Below, piece after piece: positions 6,807-59,225 of a stretch of 64,000 nucleotides of DNA. Within the stretch, counting starts at the first letter, position 1, and each line of letters begins with the position of its first letter. The notes beneath the pieces were generated by a model. That model saw only the letters and a program-made list of their open reading frames with translations. It made no database searches and was not told where the DNA came from. Source of the DNA: a virus; the IMG/VR virus record IMGVR_UViG_3300016471_001035, positions 32,001 to 96,000 of that record; one strand, given 5' to 3'. The position numbers and the translations under genes are program-made.

Positions 6807-8330
6807 TTAGAAGTAAACCGACTGTGTTCCAGGAACGAACGGAGTACCGAGGTTCTTGAGAATAATGACGTGGTAGTAAAGATTTGCACCAAAGATGTTG
6901 TCTACTACACCATAACGTGTTAGTAAGCCAACGCGAGGAGCAAAATCATTAGGACCAATTGTTCTCTGAACCATTACCGGGATGTACGGACAATAGATGA
7001 TACCAGTGTCGTAGAATTCCGGGCCCTTGTAACCAAGGAGTGCATACTCGAGGCGTACTTGACGCGAGAAGTTCTGGGTGCCATAAGCTGTTGGCCAGCC
7101 CTGACCCTGGAAATTACCAGGAGGGATGCCACCAGTATTATAAGCTTCAGCCTGAGCTTCTGTGCGAGTATCACGGTAAACGTTGAACCTGCCACCCAGC
7201 GAACCTACTTTTGCAACACCGACGGGCTGTGTATTAACATTACCCTGTACTGGTACCCACTGGAATTCAGGGAGCATTTCTAGGATAGCGCAAACGCGAG
7301 GTGTAGCAACAACGAAGTTGGCAGAACCACGGCGATTACGTACTGCAATACGATTAGCTTCGACGATTAGTCTCTGATAGAAGTCACGATTACGTTCAAC
7401 GAGCCAGCGACCGTCTGCTGATACGGGCGACCAGATTGAATAACCTGTGCCGTAGCCAGCATTGAGTGCTGTCTGGATCATGCGAATGATCATTTCACGG
7501 TCGATTTCGGCCTGTAGCTCATACGACATAGCGTTTGTGAGCTCAGTATCGATATCGATACCGTTCATGTTCTTAAGATCCTGCTCGAGCTCAACTGACC
7601 AGCGAGCGGCGAGACGGCGTGTGCCGGCCTCGACTGCTGTCTTCTCAAAGCTTACAACGACCTGAGGAATGTTTGCATTCAACTCAAACTGGCTGAGTAG
7701 CTGTGCAACACCCTGATCCTGTGTTAGCATTGTGAAGTCGGAATTACCCGACAATTGTGGCTGCTGCGTTCCGGTAAAGCCGGAAGCGAGGAACTGATAC
7801 CCTAGCTCAGGGTTTGTCGACAATGACTGTAAGAACGAGCTAGCATACTTTGTTGTAGAGTTGCTTGCGTCGATCTTGCCATCGGGATTGTAACCTAAGC
7901 TGGTGGGTTCGTACTTATAACGGAGGGCAAAAGCAAGACCTACTGGACCGCTCATGGGCTGAACACCAACGATTTCGTTAGTGATCAACTCAGGGAACGT
8001 ACGGCGAATCATCGGGATGAGGATCTTCGGTAGACGCGCATCGCCTTGGGCGTAAGCAGCATCATTCTGTGAAGGGAACTGGTTACCGTAAGCGCCATTA
8101 TTAATAGAGCCTCCGAATACGCCAGTGTTTCCACCGACTGTGTTGCTAGCCTCAAAGCACCACTTCTCTTGGTTTTCCAAAAGGATAGCGGTGTTTAAGC
8201 GTGTGTGATCGTCTTCGATAGCGCGGACGTTATCGGAAGAGTAATCCAGAACTGGACCCCACTTCTCGAGAAGTACCTTAGCGCGTGACTCATCAATGTA
8301 AGCCTGTGTAGGACGAATTTGTTTAGCCAT
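6807..8330 (-). CDS. gp23: major capsid protein, T4 gp23-like
   Basis: LLEKWGPVL, ILLENQE, GVQPMSGPVGLAFALR, ELEQDLK, LQAEIDRE, YCPYIP, TRYG. Confidence 0.97.
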   Translation of the reverse strand: MAKQIRPTQAYIDESRAKVLLEKWGPVLDYSSDNVRAIEDDHTRLNTAILLENQEKWCFEASNTVGGNTGVFGGSINNGAYGNQFPSQNDAAYAQGDARLPKILIPMIRRTFPELITNEIVGVQPMSGPVGLAFALRYKYEPTSLGYNPDGKIDASNSTTKYASSFLQSLSTNPELGYQFLASGFTGTQQPQLSGNSDFTMLTQDQGVAQLLSQFELNANIPQVVVSFEKTAVEAGTRRLAARWSVELEQDLKNMNGIDIDTELTNAMSYELQAEIDREMIIRMIQTALNAGYGTGYSIWSPVSADGRWLVERNRDFYQRLIVEANRIAVRNRRGSANFVVATPRVCAILEMLPEFQWVPVQGNVNTQPVGVAKVGSLGGRFNVYRDTRTEAQAEAYNTGGIPPGNFQGQGWPTAYGTQNFSRQVRLEYALLGYKGPEFYDTGIIYCPYIPVMVQRTIGPNDFAPRVGLLTRYGVVDNIFGANLYYHVIILKNLGTPFVPGTQSVYF

Positions 8331-9513: not shown

Positions 9514-10185
9514 TTAAGCACTTCTTAGAAACTTAAAAAACGACAAAATTTGCTCTTTGAGATAGGATTGAACGTCCTTTCTAGGAAGATTTTTAATTGA
9601 GTTTTCGAATGCATCAAATATTTCTTCAAGCTCACCCCTAGTATTAAGAATAAATTGCTTGCTCTCAAGAATTCCATTTACAAAAGCCTTTGGACACGAC
9701 GGATCAGCTACACAATCAATAGCTATTAATCTCATATCTGTTACTCTATTAACACCATTATTCTCTTCATTTAACTTACCTAAAGCTCTGCTTGACATAC
9801 CAACCTTTACACCGTCATTGATAAGATTGCGAACTATTTGACCCATGGGGGTCGAGAGAACTTGTGATTTACCAAATACGTGGTTACCTTCGAATTTAAG
9901 ATTTGTTACTAAATGGCATGCTCTTTCGAGATTAACTTCTGCTGATGTAGGATGATTTAACTCTCCCATAGCTCTATTTGTTGTGACCATTTCTTTTACA
10001 TATCTATCGACTTCACGGTGCATATCTTCTTTTTCATAGATGCGTTGATTTTTATTAACTTCATTACAAACCATATACGGGCCTTGAATAAAAAGCTTTG
10101 CAGGTTCTTTAGGGTTTTTTTCCTCTAAAATATATTCAAACTGCTCCTCAGAAGCAGGTGTTTCGACTAAAAGACGAAGCGCCAT
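9514..10185 (-). CDS. gp21: prohead protease gp21
   Basis: NKNQRIY, AMGELNHP, TPMGQIV, GMSSRALG, DCVADPS. Confidence 0.95.
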   Translation of the reverse strand: MALRLLVETPASEEQFEYILEEKNPKEPAKLFIQGPYMVCNEVNKNQRIYEKEDMHREVDRYVKEMVTTNRAMGELNHPTSAEVNLERACHLVTNLKFEGNHVFGKSQVLSTPMGQIVRNLINDGVKVGMSSRALGKLNEENNGVNRVTDMRLIAIDCVADPSCPKAFVNGILESKQFILNTRGELEEIFDAFENSIKNLPRKDVQSYLKEQILSFFKFLRSA

Positions 10186-10186
10186 A

Positions 10187-10648
10187 TTAATATTTATTTA
10201 GACCAAGTTCTTTTTCTGTTAATATTAAGAACTTATAATTCCTTTGGTCGCACCATTTTTTAGCAGCAGCCCACTTAGCCATATTTTGTATATATCTCTT
10301 GTTTTCGTAAATTAAAGTACTATTTTTCTTTTTTCCTGGAACCGGTGCAACTACTTGTGTTGATGGTTTAATTTCTATTATATATTTGTTTATATTATTA
10401 TTTTCTTTAATTGCAATAATACCATCTGTATAGTATCTATGAACTTTGCTATCAAGAGGGTTTAAATACGGGATTACCACAGCTTCGCTTGCCCATTCAA
10501 CTACATTTTCATTTTCATCGCACCATCTAAAAAATCTCAGCTCCCACCCAGATCTATAAACCGGTGGAGTTCTCCCAACATATTTGTTACTATTTCTTGG
10601 ACGAAACAACCCTTGTCTAAATTTATCGTTTTTATTGAGAGGTATCAT
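10187..10648 (-). CDS. gp4: head completion nuclease gp4 (TnsA-like)
   Basis: YRSGWE, WASE, HRYYTD, IEIKP, KWAAA, ILTEKEL. Confidence 0.92.
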   Translation of the reverse strand: MIPLNKNDKFRQGLFRPRNSNKYVGRTPPVYRSGWELRFFRWCDENENVVEWASEAVVIPYLNPLDSKVHRYYTDGIIAIKENNNINKYIIEIKPSTQVVAPVPGKKKNSTLIYENKRYIQNMAKWAAAKKWCDQRNYKFLILTEKELGLNKY

Positions 10649-16396: not shown

Positions 16397-16767
16397 GAAT
16401 TCATAAACCTCGTTTTTTCATTAGCTGACATAAGAGCTAAACGTTGATTAAAAAAATTCCAAAACTGCTTTACAGGAATTACGCTTATTAAATCACACGC
16501 AGCCATATTAATACACCTGTAATCTTGCATTAATATATCCCAAGTAATTAAAACGTTTTTTGCCTCAGGATTAAATTTAGGTCTATTAATAGCTCTCTTG
16601 TAATTTAATGCTATTCTCCCTTCCGGGCTATTTAGCAGCGGTAAAGAGTTTGTACATAGCATTCGTCTGGTAGGAGGCAGCCCAGGCTTGGGTCTTTTCC
16701 TAATAAACTTAATTTCCGCCACGTTGTTTAGAAGAAGATTTTTTAATGTGGCTAGCGACGCTTTCAT
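16393..16767 (-). CDS. WYL-like/Sm-fold (DUF2693-like) protein
   Basis: VAEIKF.RK...RRMLCT...WDILMQDYRCI pattern. Confidence 0.6.
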   Translation of the reverse strand: MKASLATLKNLLLNNVAEIKFIRKRPKPGLPPTRRMLCTNSLPLLNSPEGRIALNYKRAINRPKFNPEAKNVLITWDILMQDYRCINMAACDLISVIPVKQFWNFFNQRLALMSANEKTRFMNS

Positions 16768-17170
16768 TATCTTTTCTTAATGAGCAAATACCAAAAATAC
16801 GCTGCTCATTTAAAAATAATCCCTTTTTAAGTGTTCCATAACCATCTATATCTAAATTTGCTACCGGCACGCCTAAATTATTTGGAAAGCAAACATAATC
16901 GCCTTTTTTAACATGCTTAGCTGTTGGTCCGCATAAAATTACCTCTCCTATTCTCCAAGCACGTGTATCTGCATTAATAGGTACTACTATACCATTTCTT
17001 ACTATAGAAGAGCCATCCTCCGTTTCATCAACATACTTTACTAACAAAACATCATCTAATACTGTTTTTAAATTATAACCAAAAAAAACAGAATTAAATG
17101 AGTTTTTTGGTAGTTCTGATAAATCAATTAAGCTTTTTTGTGTCGGCAGAGTATCTATATCTAGAGGCAT
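16709..17170 (-). CDS. GroES/Cpn10-like co-chaperonin
   Basis: DDVLLVK...NGIVVP...GEVILCGP...VKKGDYVCF...LNEQRIFGI. Confidence 0.8.
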   Translation of the reverse strand: MPLDIDTLPTQKSLIDLSELPKNSFNSVFFGYNLKTVLDDVLLVKYVDETEDGSSIVRNGIVVPINADTRAWRIGEVILCGPTAKHVKKGDYVCFPNNLGVPVANLDIDGYGTLKKGLFLNEQRIFGICSLRKDNESVASHIKKSSSKQRGGN

Positions 17171-26543: not shown

Positions 26544-27737
26544 TTAAACCTGAAACGCGTAAACTGTATCATTATCTACAGCAGATATCTTATATTTTTT
26601 AATTTTGCCATACCTATCTTCAATATTAAATACATCATTTACCTTAGGTGCAACATTAGCAGCGGAGGGTTGTGAAGGAGTAGGTGCACCTGCTGTTGTA
26701 GGAGCAGTTGTAGCAGCTGATGCCGTACCTGAAGCACTAGCCGGGGTTGCGGTGCCACCGGTAACAGCACCTGGAGCTGAAACCGTACCTGAAGCTGGGG
26801 TACCCGGAGCAGGAGGTGCTGTAGGTGTAACTGTGGTTTGTTGTGCTTGTTGTTGCTGTGCTGCCATTTTTTGCATAGCTTGCTTAACCTTAGCAAGACT
26901 AAACTCTTCAATACCAGGTGGTTCTTTATCAGTAATTTTCCATCCATTTACTTTATTACTATAGTTTAAAACTGCAGCTGAAGGTAATCCTAGAGCTCTA
27001 CCATCAACTTTTTGATTATTTTGATCAAAATAATAAAGCTGTACATTAGGATCCTTAGGATCACCAACACCTACTTTTATTAAACCTATATTTCTATTAT
27101 TATTAATTTGTACATCATATATTGTCATGTTCTGGAATTTTGATGTTTTACCAAATTTAGTTCCCACATTACCGGAAACAGGTATTTTTATACCTACCCC
27201 TGCAGTAGGGTTGCGACCTATTTCAATAGAAAGATTATCACCAGACTTTGGATTTTCTGTTCTTAGCCCTAAAGACTTAGCTGTTCTATCTTGCATTTTT
27301 TTATCAATACCTGCTTGTAACTTACCCAATGCACCAGCAATTTGCTGACTCGGCCTGTCGCCGGTGAAGAAATCTGTTACACCGCGTATTGCCCCCGGTG
27401 CTGCTGCAAGGGCCCCTGGTATTTTTGTAGCTGCTTTACCTATGCCTCTAGCTGCAGCTCCTGCAGCTCCTAAAGCAGCACCTCCCAGTACATCTGCGCC
27501 TTTAGCAACTCCTTTTGCTGCTCCGGTAACTGCAGCTTTAGCAACTTTTTCAGGATCATTAATAATATCCCTTCCAAGCTTTCGGGCTCCAATTCTCGCT
27601 TTTTGTACAGCTCTTTTTAAGGGTTTACCCGCTTTTTGTTTAGCTGTTTGTGCTAGTTTCATAGCATCTTTCATATAATCAGAAAACAGCTTTTCGTTTA
27701 AAGCAAGGTTAGCTAAATTATCAAAATTATTCATCAT
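26544..27737 (-). CDS. hypothetical late protein with A/G/K-rich amphipathic region and P/T/A linker
   Basis: 397-aa ORF; N-terminal FDNLANLALNE. Confidence 0.75.
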   Translation of the reverse strand: MMNNFDNLANLALNEKLFSDYMKDAMKLAQTAKQKAGKPLKRAVQKARIGARKLGRDIINDPEKVAKAAVTGAAKGVAKGADVLGGAALGAAGAAARGIGKAATKIPGALAAAPGAIRGVTDFFTGDRPSQQIAGALGKLQAGIDKKMQDRTAKSLGLRTENPKSGDNLSIEIGRNPTAGVGIKIPVSGNVGTKFGKTSKFQNMTIYDVQINNNRNIGLIKVGVGDPKDPNVQLYYFDQNNQKVDGRALGLPSAAVLNYSNKVNGWKITDKEPPGIEEFSLAKVKQAMQKMAAQQQQAQQTTVTPTAPPAPGTPASGTVSAPGAVTGGTATPASASGTASAATTAPTTAGAPTPSQPSAANVAPKVNDVFNIEDRYGKIKKYKISAVDNDTVYAFQV

Positions 27738-29649: not shown

Positions 29650-30057
29650 ATGGATAACCTATTTAGAAAGTGTACCGAAATTTCTTATGCTTTACTAAAA
29701 AAGCATGGTAATTATCGTTGTAAGCATTTCTCTTTTATTTTTCATAAAAATCGGCTTATTTCTATAGGTATTAATAATCCGAATAAAACACATCCAAAAA
29801 ATTTAGAAATAGGGTTTTATAATAGGCGCGGTGAAGACATATCTCATACAATAGGTGTTCATTCTGAGCTTTCAGCAATACTAAAACTCGGAGAAGAAGA
29901 TTGTTCTAAATTTACACTAGTCAATACACGTATTAACCGTAATCACCAATTAGATTTATCTAAGCCTTGTGACGGCTGTACTTCGTTGTTAGAACAGCTT
30001 AATTTTAAAAAAGTTTACTATTCAACAATTAAAGGTTACCAGTTCTTACAGCTATAA
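29650..30057 (+). CDS. zinc-dependent CMP/dCMP-deaminase-fold protein
   Basis: IGIN, HSE, SKPCDGC, VYYS. Confidence 0.82.
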   Translation: MDNLFRKCTEISYALLKKHGNYRCKHFSFIFHKNRLISIGINNPNKTHPKNLEIGFYNRRGEDISHTIGVHSELSAILKLGEEDCSKFTLVNTRINRNHQLDLSKPCDGCTSLLEQLNFKKVYYSTIKGYQFLQL

Positions 30058-30323
30058 TATTTTGCAGTACCGGGTTTTGCAGAAGAGCATTTATGGCGGG
30101 CTCTAAACGATTTACGTTTTTTAGGGTTAGATTTTTTTATTCTTAAATTTGGATCTCCGTAATGTACACGTTTTAACTTACCATCAACTTTAGCACAACG
30201 CATATATTTTTTATCTGATCTAGTAGAGGCTTGCTGCCCGGTAACTTTAGTACAGCGAGAACCTTTCTTTTCTTCAATTATATCTTGTTCTAATGCATTT
30301 AAAAACGCTTGTTCGAATAACAT
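30036..30323 (-). CDS. small basic viral protein
   Basis: KRVHYGDPNLRIKK.NPKKRKSFRARHKC...YYSCKNW; TATAAATA-N5-ATG. Confidence 0.75.
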   Translation of the reverse strand: MLFEQAFLNALEQDIIEEKKGSRCTKVTGQQASTRSDKKYMRCAKVDGKLKRVHYGDPNLRIKKSNPKKRKSFRARHKCSSAKPGTAKYYSCKNW

Positions 30324-30354: not shown

Positions 30355-30924
30355 ATGTTCGCTAAGGACTATCATTTACTAAATGAAATTTATTCTCAAA
30401 AAATAAATGAGATGAATATAGGTCCAAAAGGTGATAATGAAGGAGTTACACCTACACCAAATCAAATTACAAGAGTTCAATTACCTCCTAAAAGAAAGTG
30501 CGGTGAACAAGCAGAAGAGCCTTCTGAAGATTGTGAAGGACATAACCCCGAAACTTATGACAGTAACGGTACTATGTCTAGACAGCTACTGTTTAGAATT
30601 TTTAAACTTTCAGCAATGCTACATGATATTTTAAATGGTAAAGACAATGTTGAAGCTTGGGTTTTGAGTAAAATAACCAATGCACATGATCAATTAGAAT
30701 CTGTTTTCGGTTATGAAGATTATGAAGCTGCAAAAAACCCTGCACATGGAGCTTGCGGTGCTAATAACTTCGAAGAAAGCAATGAGGAAGACATTTATTC
30801 AGCTATTGCAAAGGGTGGGGATGATATTTTACATCATATTCAAAAAATATTACGTAGAGAATCAAAAGACACTTTAGAAAAAGTTCTGCTTGAAACTATT
30901 TCTTTATTAGAGAAGAAAAATTAA
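30355..30924 (+). CDS. hypothetical late protein
   Basis: DNVEAWVLSKITNAHDQLESVFGY motif; AATAAATA-N5-ATG. Confidence 0.75.
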   Translation: MFAKDYHLLNEIYSQKINEMNIGPKGDNEGVTPTPNQITRVQLPPKRKCGEQAEEPSEDCEGHNPETYDSNGTMSRQLLFRIFKLSAMLHDILNGKDNVEAWVLSKITNAHDQLESVFGYEDYEAAKNPAHGACGANNFEESNEEDIYSAIAKGGDDILHHIQKILRRESKDTLEKVLLETISLLEKKN

Positions 30925-31577
30925 CCTAATTTTTTATTAAACAAATTATAGATACTCTCGTCATATTTACCTAACACCTGTGTAATAATTTGTTTTCTTT
31001 TTTCTGGAGTACTAGTTTTGTACAAATTTCTAAGTTCAGATGCACTAGTAATGTTTTTACCCCCTACACTAAATTTAATAGTACCAGGAGAATAAATGTA
31101 GCCGTGACCTCCTTCTTCTTTGAAAGGCTGCAATTCATTTAAACTCTTAAATGGTTGAAAATATGTTGGTGTACCTTTTTTTGTCATACCAAAAGCAAAT
31201 CTTGGATCATCTTTCATATCTTTTTCACCGACAATATAAATTACCTTTGCAACGTTTTGATCGTAATTTTGTAAAATTTCTACAGGTTTGTACGGCTGCC
31301 TTACCAAAGCAATCTCTTTTTCTGGTATACCCGCAGCTAGCATAATTTGTTTTTTCTCATTATAATTAAAAGGATATCTTTCCGGTTCTTTTAAAGATGC
31401 TTTTTCAGGTATATCGGATGTTGCTATAAAAAAATCTGCACCTGGAAATTTTCTTTTAGCTAAATCGAAAAACTCTTTATGACCTTTATGAAACGGTTGA
31501 AACCGTCCTGGAAAAATAACAATTAAGTTATTTTTTTGCGGCATTAAAATTTCATTTACTAGATCGTCAAATCTCAT
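30921..31577 (-). CDS. HIGH-motif nucleotidyltransferase (cytidylyltransferase-like)
   Basis: FPGRFQPFHKGH, VGEKD, SASELR. Confidence 0.85.
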   Translation of the reverse strand: MRFDDLVNEILMPQKNNLIVIFPGRFQPFHKGHKEFFDLAKRKFPGADFFIATSDIPEKASLKEPERYPFNYNEKKQIMLAAGIPEKEIALVRQPYKPVEILQNYDQNVAKVIYIVGEKDMKDDPRFAFGMTKKGTPTYFQPFKSLNELQPFKEEGGHGYIYSPGTIKFSVGGKNITSASELRNLYKTSTPEKRKQIITQVLGKYDESIYNLFNKKLG

Positions 31578-32785
31578 AACTGTACTCCAGGAGTTTGCAT
31601 TAATTTAGCACCTTCCTTACCATAGGGAGGGTTCGTCTCATAATTATTTGTATTATTAACACGGTTGACATTATTTAAAAATCCCTTAATACCCTCTTCG
31701 TTTTCTTGTTTTCTGAACTTACTTGCCTCTTTACCAGTTATAAAACTACCAGTTATTTTAACAGGATTGCTAGATAAAGAAGGATCTCTTATAACAATAC
31801 CTTCTTGTGTAGTAAGAGACCCTAAAACAGACGATGCTACGTTTTTAATTGCATCACCCATTAAAATTGTAGCTTGATAAAAAACAGCTCCATTGATTGC
31901 TTTTTCTATATCTTTTTTATTATTACCTAAATAATGATCCATAGGAACACCTGCAGAAATATTTTTAAAATTTTCTAGACTCATAGCGCTTATAGTTTTT
32001 CCAGAAGAAAGCTTTATTTTTTCAGCACGAGGATTTTTTGCTTTTAAGAGCCATGTTTTTAATGGTTGTGTAACGCCGTTTTTTGTATCATAATTTACAG
32101 TAAAATTAGAACTTAATGCATCGTTAAAATTAACTTTTTCTTTTAAATTGATAGTAAATTCATGCTCTACATCAAATCCTTGTTTTTTAGCTATAGGGTT
32201 AACTTTTTCTATTAAATTTTGTAATGCAGTTTTATCGTAAGCAATCTCTCTAGAAGCTCTGCTTTCAGAACCTCTTACCGGGCTTTTGATTTTTATAATT
32301 TCATTTAAACCATGAATTGCTAAGAAATTACTAGCATAACCTATAACATTTGTTGATCCTTTAACAAATTCCATATTAAAAAGAATATTGGGATTATCCC
32401 ACATTTTTAATTTTTTTAAATCCTTTTCTATACTTGGTAATGCAGAATTAAATATAGAAAGCACTATCTTACCGGTTTCGAGCATACCATGGCCTTGTGG
32501 AAATCTTTGTCCTAGCCTTTCAATTGTAACGCCTTCTATATCTTCAAGTTTATTTGAGCCCCTATCCATAGCAAACTCTTTTTTACCTTCTTTATTAGTA
32601 ATTAACTTAATAGAAGCATTTACACCATCTATTTTTACTGCAGCTGATTTTTTTGTCAAACTATTAACAGCTTTATTAAAAAAATTAATAAGATCCTTTC
32701 CAGTATTAACGTTAGGCAAATCAAATGGGTGGGCCATATGGCCTGCTACTCCACCTTCAAGTAAGAATTGTTTAAAAGTTATCAT
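31574..32785 (-). CDS. KxDG ligase/nucleotidyltransferase-like protein (DUF6267-like)
   Basis: EGGVAGHMAHPFD, VKIDG, NMEFV, EGIVIR, VKITG. Confidence 0.65.
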   Translation of the reverse strand: MITFKQFLLEGGVAGHMAHPFDLPNVNTGKDLINFFNKAVNSLTKKSAAVKIDGVNASIKLITNKEGKKEFAMDRGSNKLEDIEGVTIERLGQRFPQGHGMLETGKIVLSIFNSALPSIEKDLKKLKMWDNPNILFNMEFVKGSTNVIGYASNFLAIHGLNEIIKIKSPVRGSESRASREIAYDKTALQNLIEKVNPIAKKQGFDVEHEFTINLKEKVNFNDALSSNFTVNYDTKNGVTQPLKTWLLKAKNPRAEKIKLSSGKTISAMSLENFKNISAGVPMDHYLGNNKKDIEKAINGAVFYQATILMGDAIKNVASSVLGSLTTQEGIVIRDPSLSSNPVKITGSFITGKEASKFRKQENEEGIKGFLNNVNRVNNTNNYETNPPYGKEGAKLMQTPGVQL

Positions 32786-34186: not shown

Positions 34187-34624
34187 TCATCCTAGTTTTG
34201 GATCATTACTAAATTTTTTCATAGTATTTAAAAGCTGCTTATATTTTGCCATAAAATTATTTTCGTTAATTGAACCGATAAAAGATTTAAAATGAGGATT
34301 TTCTAGTCTAATAATGTTATCTTCTGATGTCTCACTAGTACGTATAGCCGATTGCAATCCCTCTCTTACTGTTGTTGCATTTTCTTTAGTTATTGGTGTG
34401 GTAAAAAGCGTGTCTATTGAGCCTGTAGGTATATTCATTACTAATGCTTTAGCTAGCATTCTAACCATATCAACATAACCCTCTGGGGGAATAGCAGCGG
34501 TTTCTGCTGGCTGAGGTGCAGGAGCAGGTTGCTCTTGGGCAGGTGCTGGGGCTGCAGCATCTTGCGGTTGGTCTTGTTCATTAAACAGACTCATATACTT
34601 AGAAATTTTGTCGTTAAATCTCAT
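34187..34624 (-). CDS. hypothetical late protein with Pro/Ala linker
   Basis: MRFNDKISKYMSLFNEQ..APAPAQ. Confidence 0.7.
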   Translation of the reverse strand: MRFNDKISKYMSLFNEQDQPQDAAAPAPAQEQPAPAPQPAETAAIPPEGYVDMVRMLAKALVMNIPTGSIDTLFTTPITKENATTVREGLQSAIRTSETSEDNIIRLENPHFKSFIGSINENNFMAKYKQLLNTMKKFSNDPKLG

Positions 34625-35240: not shown

Positions 35241-35660
35241 CTAAATCTTTTCAAGAAAATTCTTAGGCGGACGTCCTATTCTTACGTTGATAATACCATT
35301 ATAATAGTCATCTCTCATTAATACATTATTTTGTATTTGCTCCGAGATTTCAAAATATGCTAATTCCCATTTTGAACCGCATGTTTTTAAAATTTTAAAA
35401 ATAAACTTATCTTTACCATATTTTTTAATATCTTCGTTTAGCTCAGTTGATGAACTTGTATATTCCTTCCAATCAGATTCCTTTATTTCAACACGTTTAT
35501 TTTTTCTGCCTTTTAAAGGCTTGCGCTTTAATTTTGATTTACATTGCTTTTTACCAATGTATTTTCTACCATTAACAGTGTTTATTATTTCATAAATAAA
35601 TCCAAAAGTATCTTTATTTATAGAAACACCTTCTTTTAAAATCCAGTGACCTAAATCCAT
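35241..35660 (-). CDS. single-domain GIY-YIG-family nuclease
   Basis: GFIYEIIN..NGRKYIGKK, ESDWKEYTSS, YFE, YYN. Confidence 0.8.
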   Translation of the reverse strand: MDLGHWILKEGVSINKDTFGFIYEIINTVNGRKYIGKKQCKSKLKRKPLKGRKNKRVEIKESDWKEYTSSSTELNEDIKKYGKDKFIFKILKTCGSKWELAYFEISEQIQNNVLMRDDYYNGIINVRIGRPPKNFLEKI

Positions 35661-35676
35661 ATTATACTTAACAAAA

Positions 35677-35931
35677 TTACATTTCTAATCCAGGAAGCGG
35701 GCGTCTTTGAACTTTTAAAGTTATTTTTTTCTTTTTTTTCTTTGCACCTAAAATTTTAGGAATTCTAGCATCGCCCGGTGCATATGCTTTGTCGTTCTGT
35801 GAGGGAAATTGATTACCGAATTCCCCGGGAGCACCGCTTGTTCCCGCGCCAAAAACACTAGCAGGTCCGCCTGCAACATTTGATTCTAATAATTCTAAAA
35901 ACTTTGCTTTAAATGAAACAATTGATTTCAT
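35677..35931 (-). CDS. 84-aa protein carrying a copy of the MCP N-arm plus poly-Lys tail
   Basis: GNQFPSQNDKAYAPGDARIPKIL vs MCP GNQFPSQNDAAYAQGDARLPKIL; then GAKKKKKK. Confidence 0.85.
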   Translation of the reverse strand: MKSIVSFKAKFLELLESNVAGGPASVFGAGTSGAPGEFGNQFPSQNDKAYAPGDARIPKILGAKKKKKKITLKVQRRPLPGLEM

Positions 35932-35957
35932 ATAACTTTATACTATTATTTAAGTTA

Positions 35958-36350
35958 ATGCAGCTAGAAGATTACATAAAAGAGTTAGAATTAGACTTAA
36001 AAATCAATGAGCTTGAGTTAAAAGATTATCAGCTTAAACTACCCGGAATAAAGCATAAATGGGCAGGGAGATGCATTCGTCACAAGTTGGAGCTTAACGA
36101 TTTACGTAAAAAAAGAGAATTTTTAAAACGAACTTTGGTTGAAAAGCTTCAAGAGCAGAGCCCAGTAAAACTAAACCTACCTGTCGCAGAGAGAACAGTA
36201 GAAAAGCATAGTGAGTTGGCAGAGATGGACGAGCGTATGAAACAATTAGAACTTATAGTAGAACTGCTTGAAAAGTCTGAAAAAACTTTGAGCGCAACGT
36301 CTTATGATTTAAAAAATATTATTGACATAATAAAGCTTGAGACGACATGA
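35958..36350 (+). CDS. uvsY: UvsY-like recombination mediator
   Basis: DLKINE, LPGIKHKW, YDLKNIID; coupled to uvsW. Confidence 0.8.
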   Translation: MQLEDYIKELELDLKINELELKDYQLKLPGIKHKWAGRCIRHKLELNDLRKKREFLKRTLVEKLQEQSPVKLNLPVAERTVEKHSELAEMDERMKQLELIVELLEKSEKTLSATSYDLKNIIDIIKLETT

Positions 36351-57793: not shown

Positions 57794-58831
57794 GTGTTAA
57801 TACCGACCGAATATATACTGCAAAAATTTTATCAGTACGCTGGCTATCCTCAATATAAAAAGAGTAGCAACACTTATATTGCAGGGTGCCCTATATGCAG
57901 AGAAGGAAAATCGTGGGGTAAAAAAAGAAGATGCATTTTTATTGTTGAAGACAATGCTATATGCTGTCATAATTGTGGTTGGTATAGTGATGCGGTAAAA
58001 TGGATTTGCGAGGTATCGGGGCTAAATTTTTCTGAAGTACTTAATGAATCTAAAAATTTTGATATCTTACCATTAAACGCATATACTGACGAAACTAAAC
58101 AGGAAAAGCCTAAACCAACACATACACTCCCTACCGACTGTATAAATTTATTTGATAATAATCAAATTGAATTTTATAAAGATAATAAGATTGTTAATGA
58201 CGCTCTTTCTATTGTTATTAATAGAAGACTAGATAGAGCAGTTAATAGACCAGATACATTGTATGTTACCTGTAAAGATAAAATTCATAAAAACAGAATT
58301 GTAATACCTTTTTATGACGATAATAATAATAATATTATTTTTTATCAAACAAGGCTTATTTATAAAAACGATGAAAAGCTGTATCCTAAGTATCTAAGCA
58401 AGGTAAATGGAGAGAAATCCCTATACAATATCAATAAAATAGATCCGCAATTAGAATATATTTTTATTTTTGAAGGCCCTATCGATTCTTTTTTCGTAAA
58501 AAACGGTACTGCTGTTGCAGGTATTCAAGAGAATAGTAGCAATACATTTTCAACACTCCAGGAACAACAACTCATACCTTTTAAGTTTTTTAAAAAGATA
58601 TGGGTGTTAGACAGCCAGTGGGCTGATACAGCAAGTAGAAATAAGACGAGTAAGTTAATTGAAAATGAAGAAACTGTTTTTATATGGCCAGAGGATTTAG
58701 GTAAAAAATATAAAGATATAAATGAGTACTGTGTTAGTAATAAATTAGACAGTATTGATCCAGAGTTTTTAATTAATAATTCTTATTCAGGAATTAAAGC
58801 CAAGCTTTTAATGTCTATTATCTGTCGTTAG
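57794..58831 (+). CDS. gp61: DNA primase gp61
   Basis: CPIC..CHNCG zinc finger, RIVIPF, FEGPIDS, KDINE; TTGTAA-N16-TATAAT-N6-GTG. Confidence 0.93.
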   Translation: MLIPTEYILQKFYQYAGYPQYKKSSNTYIAGCPICREGKSWGKKRRCIFIVEDNAICCHNCGWYSDAVKWICEVSGLNFSEVLNESKNFDILPLNAYTDETKQEKPKPTHTLPTDCINLFDNNQIEFYKDNKIVNDALSIVINRRLDRAVNRPDTLYVTCKDKIHKNRIVIPFYDDNNNNIIFYQTRLIYKNDEKLYPKYLSKVNGEKSLYNINKIDPQLEYIFIFEGPIDSFFVKNGTAVAGIQENSSNTFSTLQEQQLIPFKFFKKIWVLDSQWADTASRNKTSKLIENEETVFIWPEDLGKKYKDINEYCVSNKLDSIDPEFLINNSYSGIKAKLLMSIICR

Positions 58832-59225
58832 CAGAAATTAAATAGCCTTTAAGAGATTCGCTCAAAGAACTAAGCTCTGCTGCTAGTCTTGCTATTTTCT
58901 TTTTCTCGCTTCTAGCAATATCTTCAAAAATAGAATCACAAGCTGCTGTGTGAAGCTGTACCTGCATGCTGCTAGCATCTGTACTATTTAAAAACTTAAT
59001 AAACTCATCTATTTGAGTAATCCAGCCTTTAAGCTTGGAAATCTGCTCTGCTTTTTTATGATCTTGTACTTGCTCTCTTCCTCCCTGAACGTCAAAATCT
59101 TCAGGCTTAGCAGTATCAAGCGTAGATGCCATAGCTTCTTTATCGGTTTGAGGAGCTACAGCTGGAGCAGGTTCCGTCTCATCAGCTTCTAATAATGTGG
59201 TAAACTTACTAACAAAAGAACTCAT
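58818..59225 (-). CDS. hypothetical late protein
   Basis: MSSFVSKFTTLLEAD; TAAATA-N5-ATG. Confidence 0.75.
   Translation of the reverse strand: MSSFVSKFTTLLEADETEPAPAVAPQTDKEAMASTLDTAKPEDFDVQGGREQVQDHKKAEQISKLKGWITQIDEFIKFLNSTDASSMQVQLHTAACDSIFEDIARSEKKKIARLAAELSSLSESLKGYLISANDR

Follow-up and report, generated by a model that had tools for sequence, protein, structure and literature searches.

The window analysed here (the whole stretch of 64,000 nucleotides, positions 32,001 to 96,000 of the IMG/VR virus record IMGVR_UViG_3300016471_001035) comes from an uncultured freshwater T4-like phage and carries a small gene whose product is a free-standing, selected copy of the N-terminal arm of this phage's major capsid protein, including the Glu site of the head protease and combined with a basic element. 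This core claim of the initial annotation holds, and its wider interpretation is supported in part; a capsid-targeting-like N-terminus, which had been overlooked, points to loading into the prohead. The best explanation, to which we give about an even chance, is a small, intrinsically disordered head protein that arose when part of the gene for the capsid protein was copied. The features on which the argument draws are listed below, with coordinates referring to the window.

35677..35931, minus strand: small ORF with ATG start, 84 amino acids plus stop codon, from the ORF list; it comprises a leader, the arm copy, a lysine insert and an RR-x-L-P-x-L end
35884..35931, minus strand: leader, residues 1-16, an amphipathic helix ending in L-L-E; putative capsid-targeting propeptide and head-protease cut site
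35749..35883, minus strand: arm copy, residues 17-61; its homologue is the mature N-terminus of the capsid protein, residues 62-104 (BLASTP, codon count, hhalign)
35716..35748, minus strand: lysine-rich insertion, residues 62-72, without counterpart in the capsid protein (gap of 11 columns in hhalign)
35680..35715, minus strand: C-terminal segment, residues 73-84, in which homology to capsid protein residues 105-116 picks up again (hhalign)
35947..35953, minus strand: variant form of the late-promoter-like motif (TTAAATA), 15 nt 5' of the ATG of the small ORF and kept in relatives
7983..8159, minus strand: capsid protein residues 58-116, cut site and flexible N-terminal arm, the paralogous segment as aligned to T4 gp23
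6807..8330, minus strand: major capsid protein of the gp23 type, 507 amino acids (Pfam Gp23, 7e-88; PDB matches to T4 gp23, E = 7e-31)
9514..10185, minus strand: gp21-type prohead protease (Pfam Peptidase_S77, 1.5e-34), expected to cut after L/I-x-Glu
35241..35660, minus strand: SegE-like GIY-YIG domain protein of 139 amino acids, downstream neighbour of the small ORF in the same orientation (Pfam SegE_GIY-YIG, 5.8e-31)

Homology between the small protein and the capsid protein is already evident in BLASTP, where residues 17-61 of the former align to residues 62-104 of the latter with 28/45 identities (E = 7e-16). Since most of the shared residues use different codons (22 of the 28 identical ones among 43 aligned positions), at a nucleotide identity of 55%, the similarity is held at the protein level. 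For a 23-residue core, the initial annotation had counted 20 identical residues, 15 of them with different codons; a recount gave the same values, and the protein-level selection deduced from them agrees with the larger codon count and with the purifying selection seen by dN/dS (see below). Comparison of family against family by hhalign, using the small-protein family alignment (A1) and 17 capsid protein N-termini from related contigs, extended the match to residues 14-82 of the small protein and 58-116 of the capsid protein (99.6% probability, E = 1.7e-23). This span takes in the presumed maturation Glu, with LLE/S in the small protein against CFE/A in the capsid protein (the slash marking the presumed cut), and thereby confirms the upstream similarity reported earlier. 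At the other end, the lysines had been described as a poly-lysine tail that replaces the capsid body. Instead, they form an insertion inside continuing homology: past an insert of 10-11 residues (G62 to about L72), the alignment resumes with VQRRPLPGL in the small protein versus MIRRTFPEL in the capsid protein, and elsewhere in the family the C-terminus reads IQRRTFPNL or VMRRTFPGM.

The corresponding segment has been characterized structurally in T4. In the unexpanded T4 head, residues 66-105 of gp23 are disordered, point inward and probably touch the scaffolding core, with L106 being the first ordered residue (PMC9546572). After head expansion, the same residues are externalised as N-arm and N-fist (PMC9546572; PMC9958956). 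HMMER aligns MIRRTFPEL(115) of the window capsid protein, which is only about 32% identical to those of cultured cyanophages, with MVRRAIPNL(106) of T4. The small protein is thus a free copy of precisely this mobile part, running from the cut site up to where the body begins. The HK97-type body of Gp23 (PF07068; A, P and I domains) is absent from the small protein, which gives no Pfam match to it and ends at the equivalent of T4 L106. More generally, the small protein matched no family in a Pfam scan and no PHROG even at E 10, its family alignment gave no match in a profile search of the PDB, and neither tblastn with the protein nor megablast with the locus matched anything in the cultured-phage collection. 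The ESM Atlas yielded unnamed viral clusters only, together with a model of very low confidence, while AlphaFold2 predicts a helix for residues 3-17 and coil for the rest (mean pLDDT 63).

The small ORF is a real gene under purifying selection. A total of 55 homologues was found, measuring 46-147 amino acids and sharing 40-76% identity with the small protein, and a profile search among 1.8 billion representative proteins returned 315 clusters at E 0.001 or better; the family thus comprises at least 315 clusters at 50% identity, and all cluster entries that were looked up are annotated as 'hypothetical protein'. The dN/dS ratio versus orthologues is about 0.08-0.3, with dS being saturated, and the basic run is conserved across the family. 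The initial annotation had made its reading depend on relatives keeping the ORF, and it is present in every contig that covers the locus. Four viral contigs with the small ORF end before the capsid protein gene; contig G010 has the capsid protein gene and no small ORF, but the GIY-YIG neighbour is missing there as well, and hence it provides no evidence of absence. Synteny is fixed, with uvsW and uvsY on one strand and, divergently and 26 nt off, the small ORF, the SegE-like GIY-YIG gene and genes for proteins of 186 and 145 amino acids. Among sequencing runs, the sequence was detected only in DNA from freshwater metagenomes, in five runs belonging to two studies, and two of these runs may represent the source sample; no RNA run was among those listed.

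Two observations concern the neighbouring genes. For the UvsY-like ORF (window 35913-36350, plus strand), the most likely start codon is the ATG at 35958 (MQLEDYIKE...), which gives 130 amino acids as in relatives; with this start, the two divergent start codons stand only 26 nt apart. On the other side, the GIY-YIG neighbour is 69-76% identical in four distant relatives and always follows immediately after the small ORF. Homing endonucleases of the SegE type are expected to carry a separate DNA-binding domain, for which 139 amino acids are too short, and T4 SegE is annotated at 618 nt. The 139-residue SegE-type protein of the window looks like a fixed core gene and not like a mobile homing endonuclease. 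Hitch-hiking of a foreign capsid gene fragment with a GIY-YIG homing endonuclease was considered as an origin of the small ORF and rejected, since the GIY-YIG gene is a conserved core gene and the small ORF is selected.

Some family members are fused to extra domains, which follow the module or precede the leader, and a few run on to a GMQGPS stretch which, by eye, resembles GVQPMSGP of the capsid protein. These fused and extended forms support a putative origin by truncation of a capsid gene copy, and a module that may be portable. Three of the fused metagenomic proteins (P0246, P0276 and P0242) carry DUF5661, a phage domain, on either side of the arm module. In the fused forms, a Glu that follows the RR motif was considered as another cut site and discarded, being the homologue of Glu114 in FPEL of the capsid protein.

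The N-terminus of the small protein resembles the sequences by which T4 proteins are targeted to the head. T4 gp21 cuts after L/I-x-E, and in the T4 capsid-targeting sequence, residues 4 and 7 serve targeting, while residues 8 and 10 (Glu) serve processing (PMC9026906). Taking a length of 10-19 residues and the key residues 4, 7, 8 and 10 as criterion for a capsid-targeting propeptide, family members of the MKSFKEFILE type fit all four key positions, and the leader of the window protein is a longer, 16-residue version with F7, F11 and L-L-E16. Other leaders in the family read MKTFKQFVYSE and MITFKQFFTEE, compared to MKTYQEFIAE in T4 IPII/IPIII. A Glu just upstream of the glycine-rich start is found in 151 of 180 family sequences, and the P3 position before it is occupied by L/I/V/F/M/Y in 136 of these 151, mostly by L or I; this conserved hydrophobic-x-Glu matches the L/I-x-E motif of T4 gp21. 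The same type of leader also occurs elsewhere in the genome, namely in a 403-residue protein (MITFKQFLLE/GG) and in a 58-residue protein (MKSFKEYFLLE, followed by a Lys/Arg run). Within the window, proteins with capsid-targeting-like leaders ending in x-x-Glu are encoded at 31574-32785, 30921-31577, 30036-30323, 34187-34624 and 26544-27737 (all minus strand), and a further one lies outside the window (genome 16634-16810, plus strand). Most mature parts in this cluster are strongly basic, and the proteins are candidates for packaging. Separately, a protein with a TnsA-like endonuclease domain (window 10187-10648, minus strand; Pfam PF08722, 1.1e-19) is encoded in the head module beside the prohead protease gene.

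As to timing, the class [ACT]TAAATA shows by far the strongest enrichment among upstream 7-mers in the genome and stands 5-6 nt before the ATG in 34 genes of the whole 139.6-kb record. The TTAAATA of the small ORF is located at 15 nt, versus 5-6 nt in these 34 other genes. The upstream block is kept in orthologues of the small ORF, some relatives having the canonical ATAAATA, and no sigma-70-like site was found upstream of the small ORF on that strand. Judged by these elements, late expression of the small ORF is likely.

The initial annotation had known of no T4 equivalent. However, gene 61.1 of T4 is built in the same way, its copied part being residues 57-93 of T4's own gp23. The product, gp61.1 (54 amino acids), starts with MKTFKEFIKE, which shares 7 of 10 positions with the T4 capsid-targeting sequence, and matches gp23 57-93 with 17/37 identities (E = 6e-9), followed by a lysine-rich tail. 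Both proteins hence share a targeting-like leader ending in x-x-Glu, a copy of the mature N-terminus of the own capsid protein and a lysine-rich stretch, and the window protein appears to be a divergent variant of the gp61.1 kind. In direct comparison, their sequence likeness is weak (BLASTP E = 0.065), and hhalign of A1 versus gp61.1 gives 72.7% at E = 3e-5 over 20 columns only. Family members P0207 (E = 1.4e-5) and P0045 (E = 0.028) match phrog_1823, whereas the window protein itself does not, so that the link to gp61.1 rests on the shared architecture and weak profile matches. Further differences are that T4 gp61.1 lacks the resumed RR-x-F-P-x-L segment and that gene 61.1 is located beside the primase gene 61 among early genes, while the window ORF lies between uvsY and the GIY-YIG gene behind a late-type motif.

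In T4, gp61.1 is annotated as 'conserved hypothetical' (PHROG 1823, with PHROG 2086 for the long form). Homologues were retrieved from 1389 phage records, and many of them are long forms (about 150-165 amino acids) near the primase gene; primase gene 61 is annotated directly beside the gp61.1-like gene in T4, 44RR, Ac42 and S16, and a primase/helicase is found nearby in RB43. Gp61.1 is, to our knowledge, absent from published lists of T4 head proteins. Gene 61.1 has been listed as a conserved ORF without function (PMC1524935), and literature searches on gp61.1 returned no functional study and no paper describing a capsid-arm copy with a head-targeting leader. Its setting is an early, anti-defence neighbourhood: in T4 (NC_000866, 17500-21000), 61.1 lies directly downstream of adfA (61.2; match to Pfam AdfA, anti-DarT factor A, at 1e-135), with dmd and sp nearby. 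With this early-gene setting and no TATAAATA within 3.5 kb, a role in the head is not obvious for T4 61.1. Several GenBank records of T4-like phages name the long form of gp61.1 'major capsid protein', e.g. Klebsiella phage Miro at 16633-17121; this label is evidently a recurring mis-annotation that stems from the arm copy.

Whether the arm copy follows its own capsid protein depends on the distance at which phages are compared. The motif had been expected to track the phage's own capsid protein, and this fails within the clade, where the capsid motif is nearly invariant and the own capsid protein was never the best match across 7 pairs (permutation P = 0.55); moreover, two relatives that keep the gene (L107 and L108) have lost most of the motif from the small protein. 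Between distant T4-like phages, the expectation holds. For seven distant pairs (T4, 44RR2.8t, RB43, Ac42, Miro, S16 and the window), the double-centred own-pair score was above all but 4 of the 5040 exhaustive permutations (P = 0.0008), and the six cultured T4-like phages alone gave P = 0.0056. Cross-comparisons, in turn, were not significant, neither for the window small protein versus T4 gp23 (E = 4.3) nor for gp61.1 versus the window capsid protein (E = 0.24). Between distant phages, the pattern would reflect either co-evolution of both genes or repeated re-copying of one from the other.

From these data, we infer packaging, cleavage, location and DNA binding of the small protein as follows. 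The amphipathic leader (residues 1-16) would act like the T4 capsid-targeting sequence, so that the protein enters the prohead along with the scaffolding core. There, the gp21-type protease would cut after Glu16, as in the capsid protein after Glu60, and the released peptide of about 68 residues with a net charge of about +7 would stay in the head. The arm copy would make the contacts of the capsid protein's own flexible N-terminus, with the scaffold core first and with the shell later, while the lysine run would bind the acidic scaffold and then DNA. That the small protein is such a head-loaded, protease-processed, basic and disordered peptide seems to us a proposition with balanced arguments. 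In its favour, we counted the homology limits, the leader helix, the Glu motif, the S77 protease, the sibling leaders, the late-like element, gp61.1 and the basic mature part; the 15-nt spacing of the promoter element, the early context of T4 61.1, the absence of gp61.1 from the lists of head proteins known to us and the weak phrog_1823 link were counted against it.

Parts of this proposed route have precedents in T4. The internal proteins IPII and IPIII (as well as IPI and Alt) resemble the window protein in their short propeptide, which is amphipathic, contains aromatic residues and ends in L/I-x-Glu, and in the basic character of the mature part; their loading into the prohead core with subsequent cleavage by gp21 is the route that would be expected for the window protein. 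In contrast, their mature parts are not homologous to it, and they contain no copy of the capsid protein. The vertex protein gp24 is likewise a paralogue of the capsid protein from which gp21 removes a 10-residue propeptide (PMC9546572); it differs in keeping the whole HK97-type body, whereas the window protein stops before the body. The homologous segment itself, the N-fist/N-arm of gp23 (T4 66-105), is flexible in the prohead and becomes inter-capsomer contacts after expansion. Compared to this arm, the copy in the window is free-standing, is interrupted by the lysine run and lacks an anchoring body.

Among the alternatives, the arm may act in trans, meaning that the processed peptide would be part of the mature shell and dock into empty arm/N-fist sites near the portal or the vertices, with its lysines facing the DNA. 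We consider this unlikely. It would agree with the tracking of the own capsid arm between distant phages (seven pairs as well as the six cultured ones) and with the apparent lack of a gp24 paralogue in the 139.6-kb record, which is only 66% complete. The capsid arm, however, is nearly invariant in the clade and yet the motif is mostly lost in L107 and L108, co-variation within the clade is not seen, and we know of no report of unassigned density in T4 capsid maps. Structurally, the T4 N-fist contacts four subunits (PMC9958956), which favours such docking, but the T4 arm finishes on the outer surface (PMC9546572) and is thus a poor fit with a DNA-binding tail.

Instead of entering the head, the small protein might be a cytoplasmic decoy or modulator, mimicking the nascent or immature capsid protein N-terminus and blocking or diverting a host factor that binds there, e.g. 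a capsid-sensing defence protein, a chaperone or EF-Tu. This role, distinctly improbable in our judgement, is kept alive by the position of T4 61.1 among early genes, directly after adfA and near dmd and sp, with no late promoter, and own-capsid tracking would suit a decoy as well. Moreover, the N-terminal quarter of gp23 is a known trigger of defence, with the Gol peptide acting together with Lit and EF-Tu (PMC3014915). On the other hand, a decoy leaves the conserved targeting-like leader and the Glu cut site without explanation, we know of no defence partner, and the window gene has a late-type promoter element and lies beside other leader-bearing proteins. Furthermore, the part copied in T4 (57-93) stops about where the Gol region of gp23, which we take to be about 93-122, begins.

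A third function, for which the chances appear very small, is that of an assembly regulator, in which the small protein as competing substrate or scaffold ligand would tune capsid-scaffold contacts, head size or protease timing before being degraded or expelled. Its cut-site context is indeed the same as that of the capsid protein, and the T4 capsid protein touches the scaffold through its N-terminal region, which has an influence on head length (PMC9546572). The domain fusions and the conservation of the basic run, however, fit loading and retention better. A non-functional remnant of a partial capsid gene duplication, to which the coverage of only the 5' part of the capsid reading frame might point, has a negligible probability and is ruled out by the selection and conservation data, i.e. 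the dN/dS values (dS saturated), the codon differences at shared residues, the at least 315 clusters and the conserved synteny.

Returning to the head-loaded peptide, the data describe a selected partial capsid protein copy that is kept across T4-like phages, from T4, a phage of E. coli, to uncultured phages abundant in freshwater, in a gene which carries an apparent head-loading tag and to which the papers found assign no function. A more far-reaching proposal, which we put forward tentatively and regard as doubtful, is that T4-like phages generally encode a free capsid-arm copy co-evolving with the capsid protein. After prohead loading and protease cleavage, this copy would supply the missing arm at lattice positions around the portal or the vertices and so complete the shell in trans, while the basic run would hold DNA. 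If true, shell completion in trans would define a new class of capsid-completing protein; a decoy against capsid-sensing host immunity would be just as new. The idea can be tested in T4, as T4 has a counterpart in 61.1. The addressing of proteins to the T4 scaffolding core is still called mysterious (PMC9958956), and a protein reusing the core-facing segment of the capsid protein offers a concrete handle on it. Fusions of the module to other domains exist as well, and if it does address proteins to the head, it could be used for loading foreign proteins into phage heads.

Finally, two observations were made on the late-type motif in the remainder of the genome. The 34 genes with the motif 5-6 nt before the ATG have no Shine-Dalgarno site, e.g. 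those at window 9514-10185, 30036-30323 and 58818-59225, which suggests that most late mRNAs of this phage may be leaderless or nearly so. Upstream of the window (genome about 110-21250), eight genes start with MADVTI and a ninth with MADVSI, while a tenth (187 amino acids, MPDITITGL) may be related; members of this large paralogous family measure 139-283 amino acids, and in each gene a separate late-type motif precedes the ATG by 5-6 nt.
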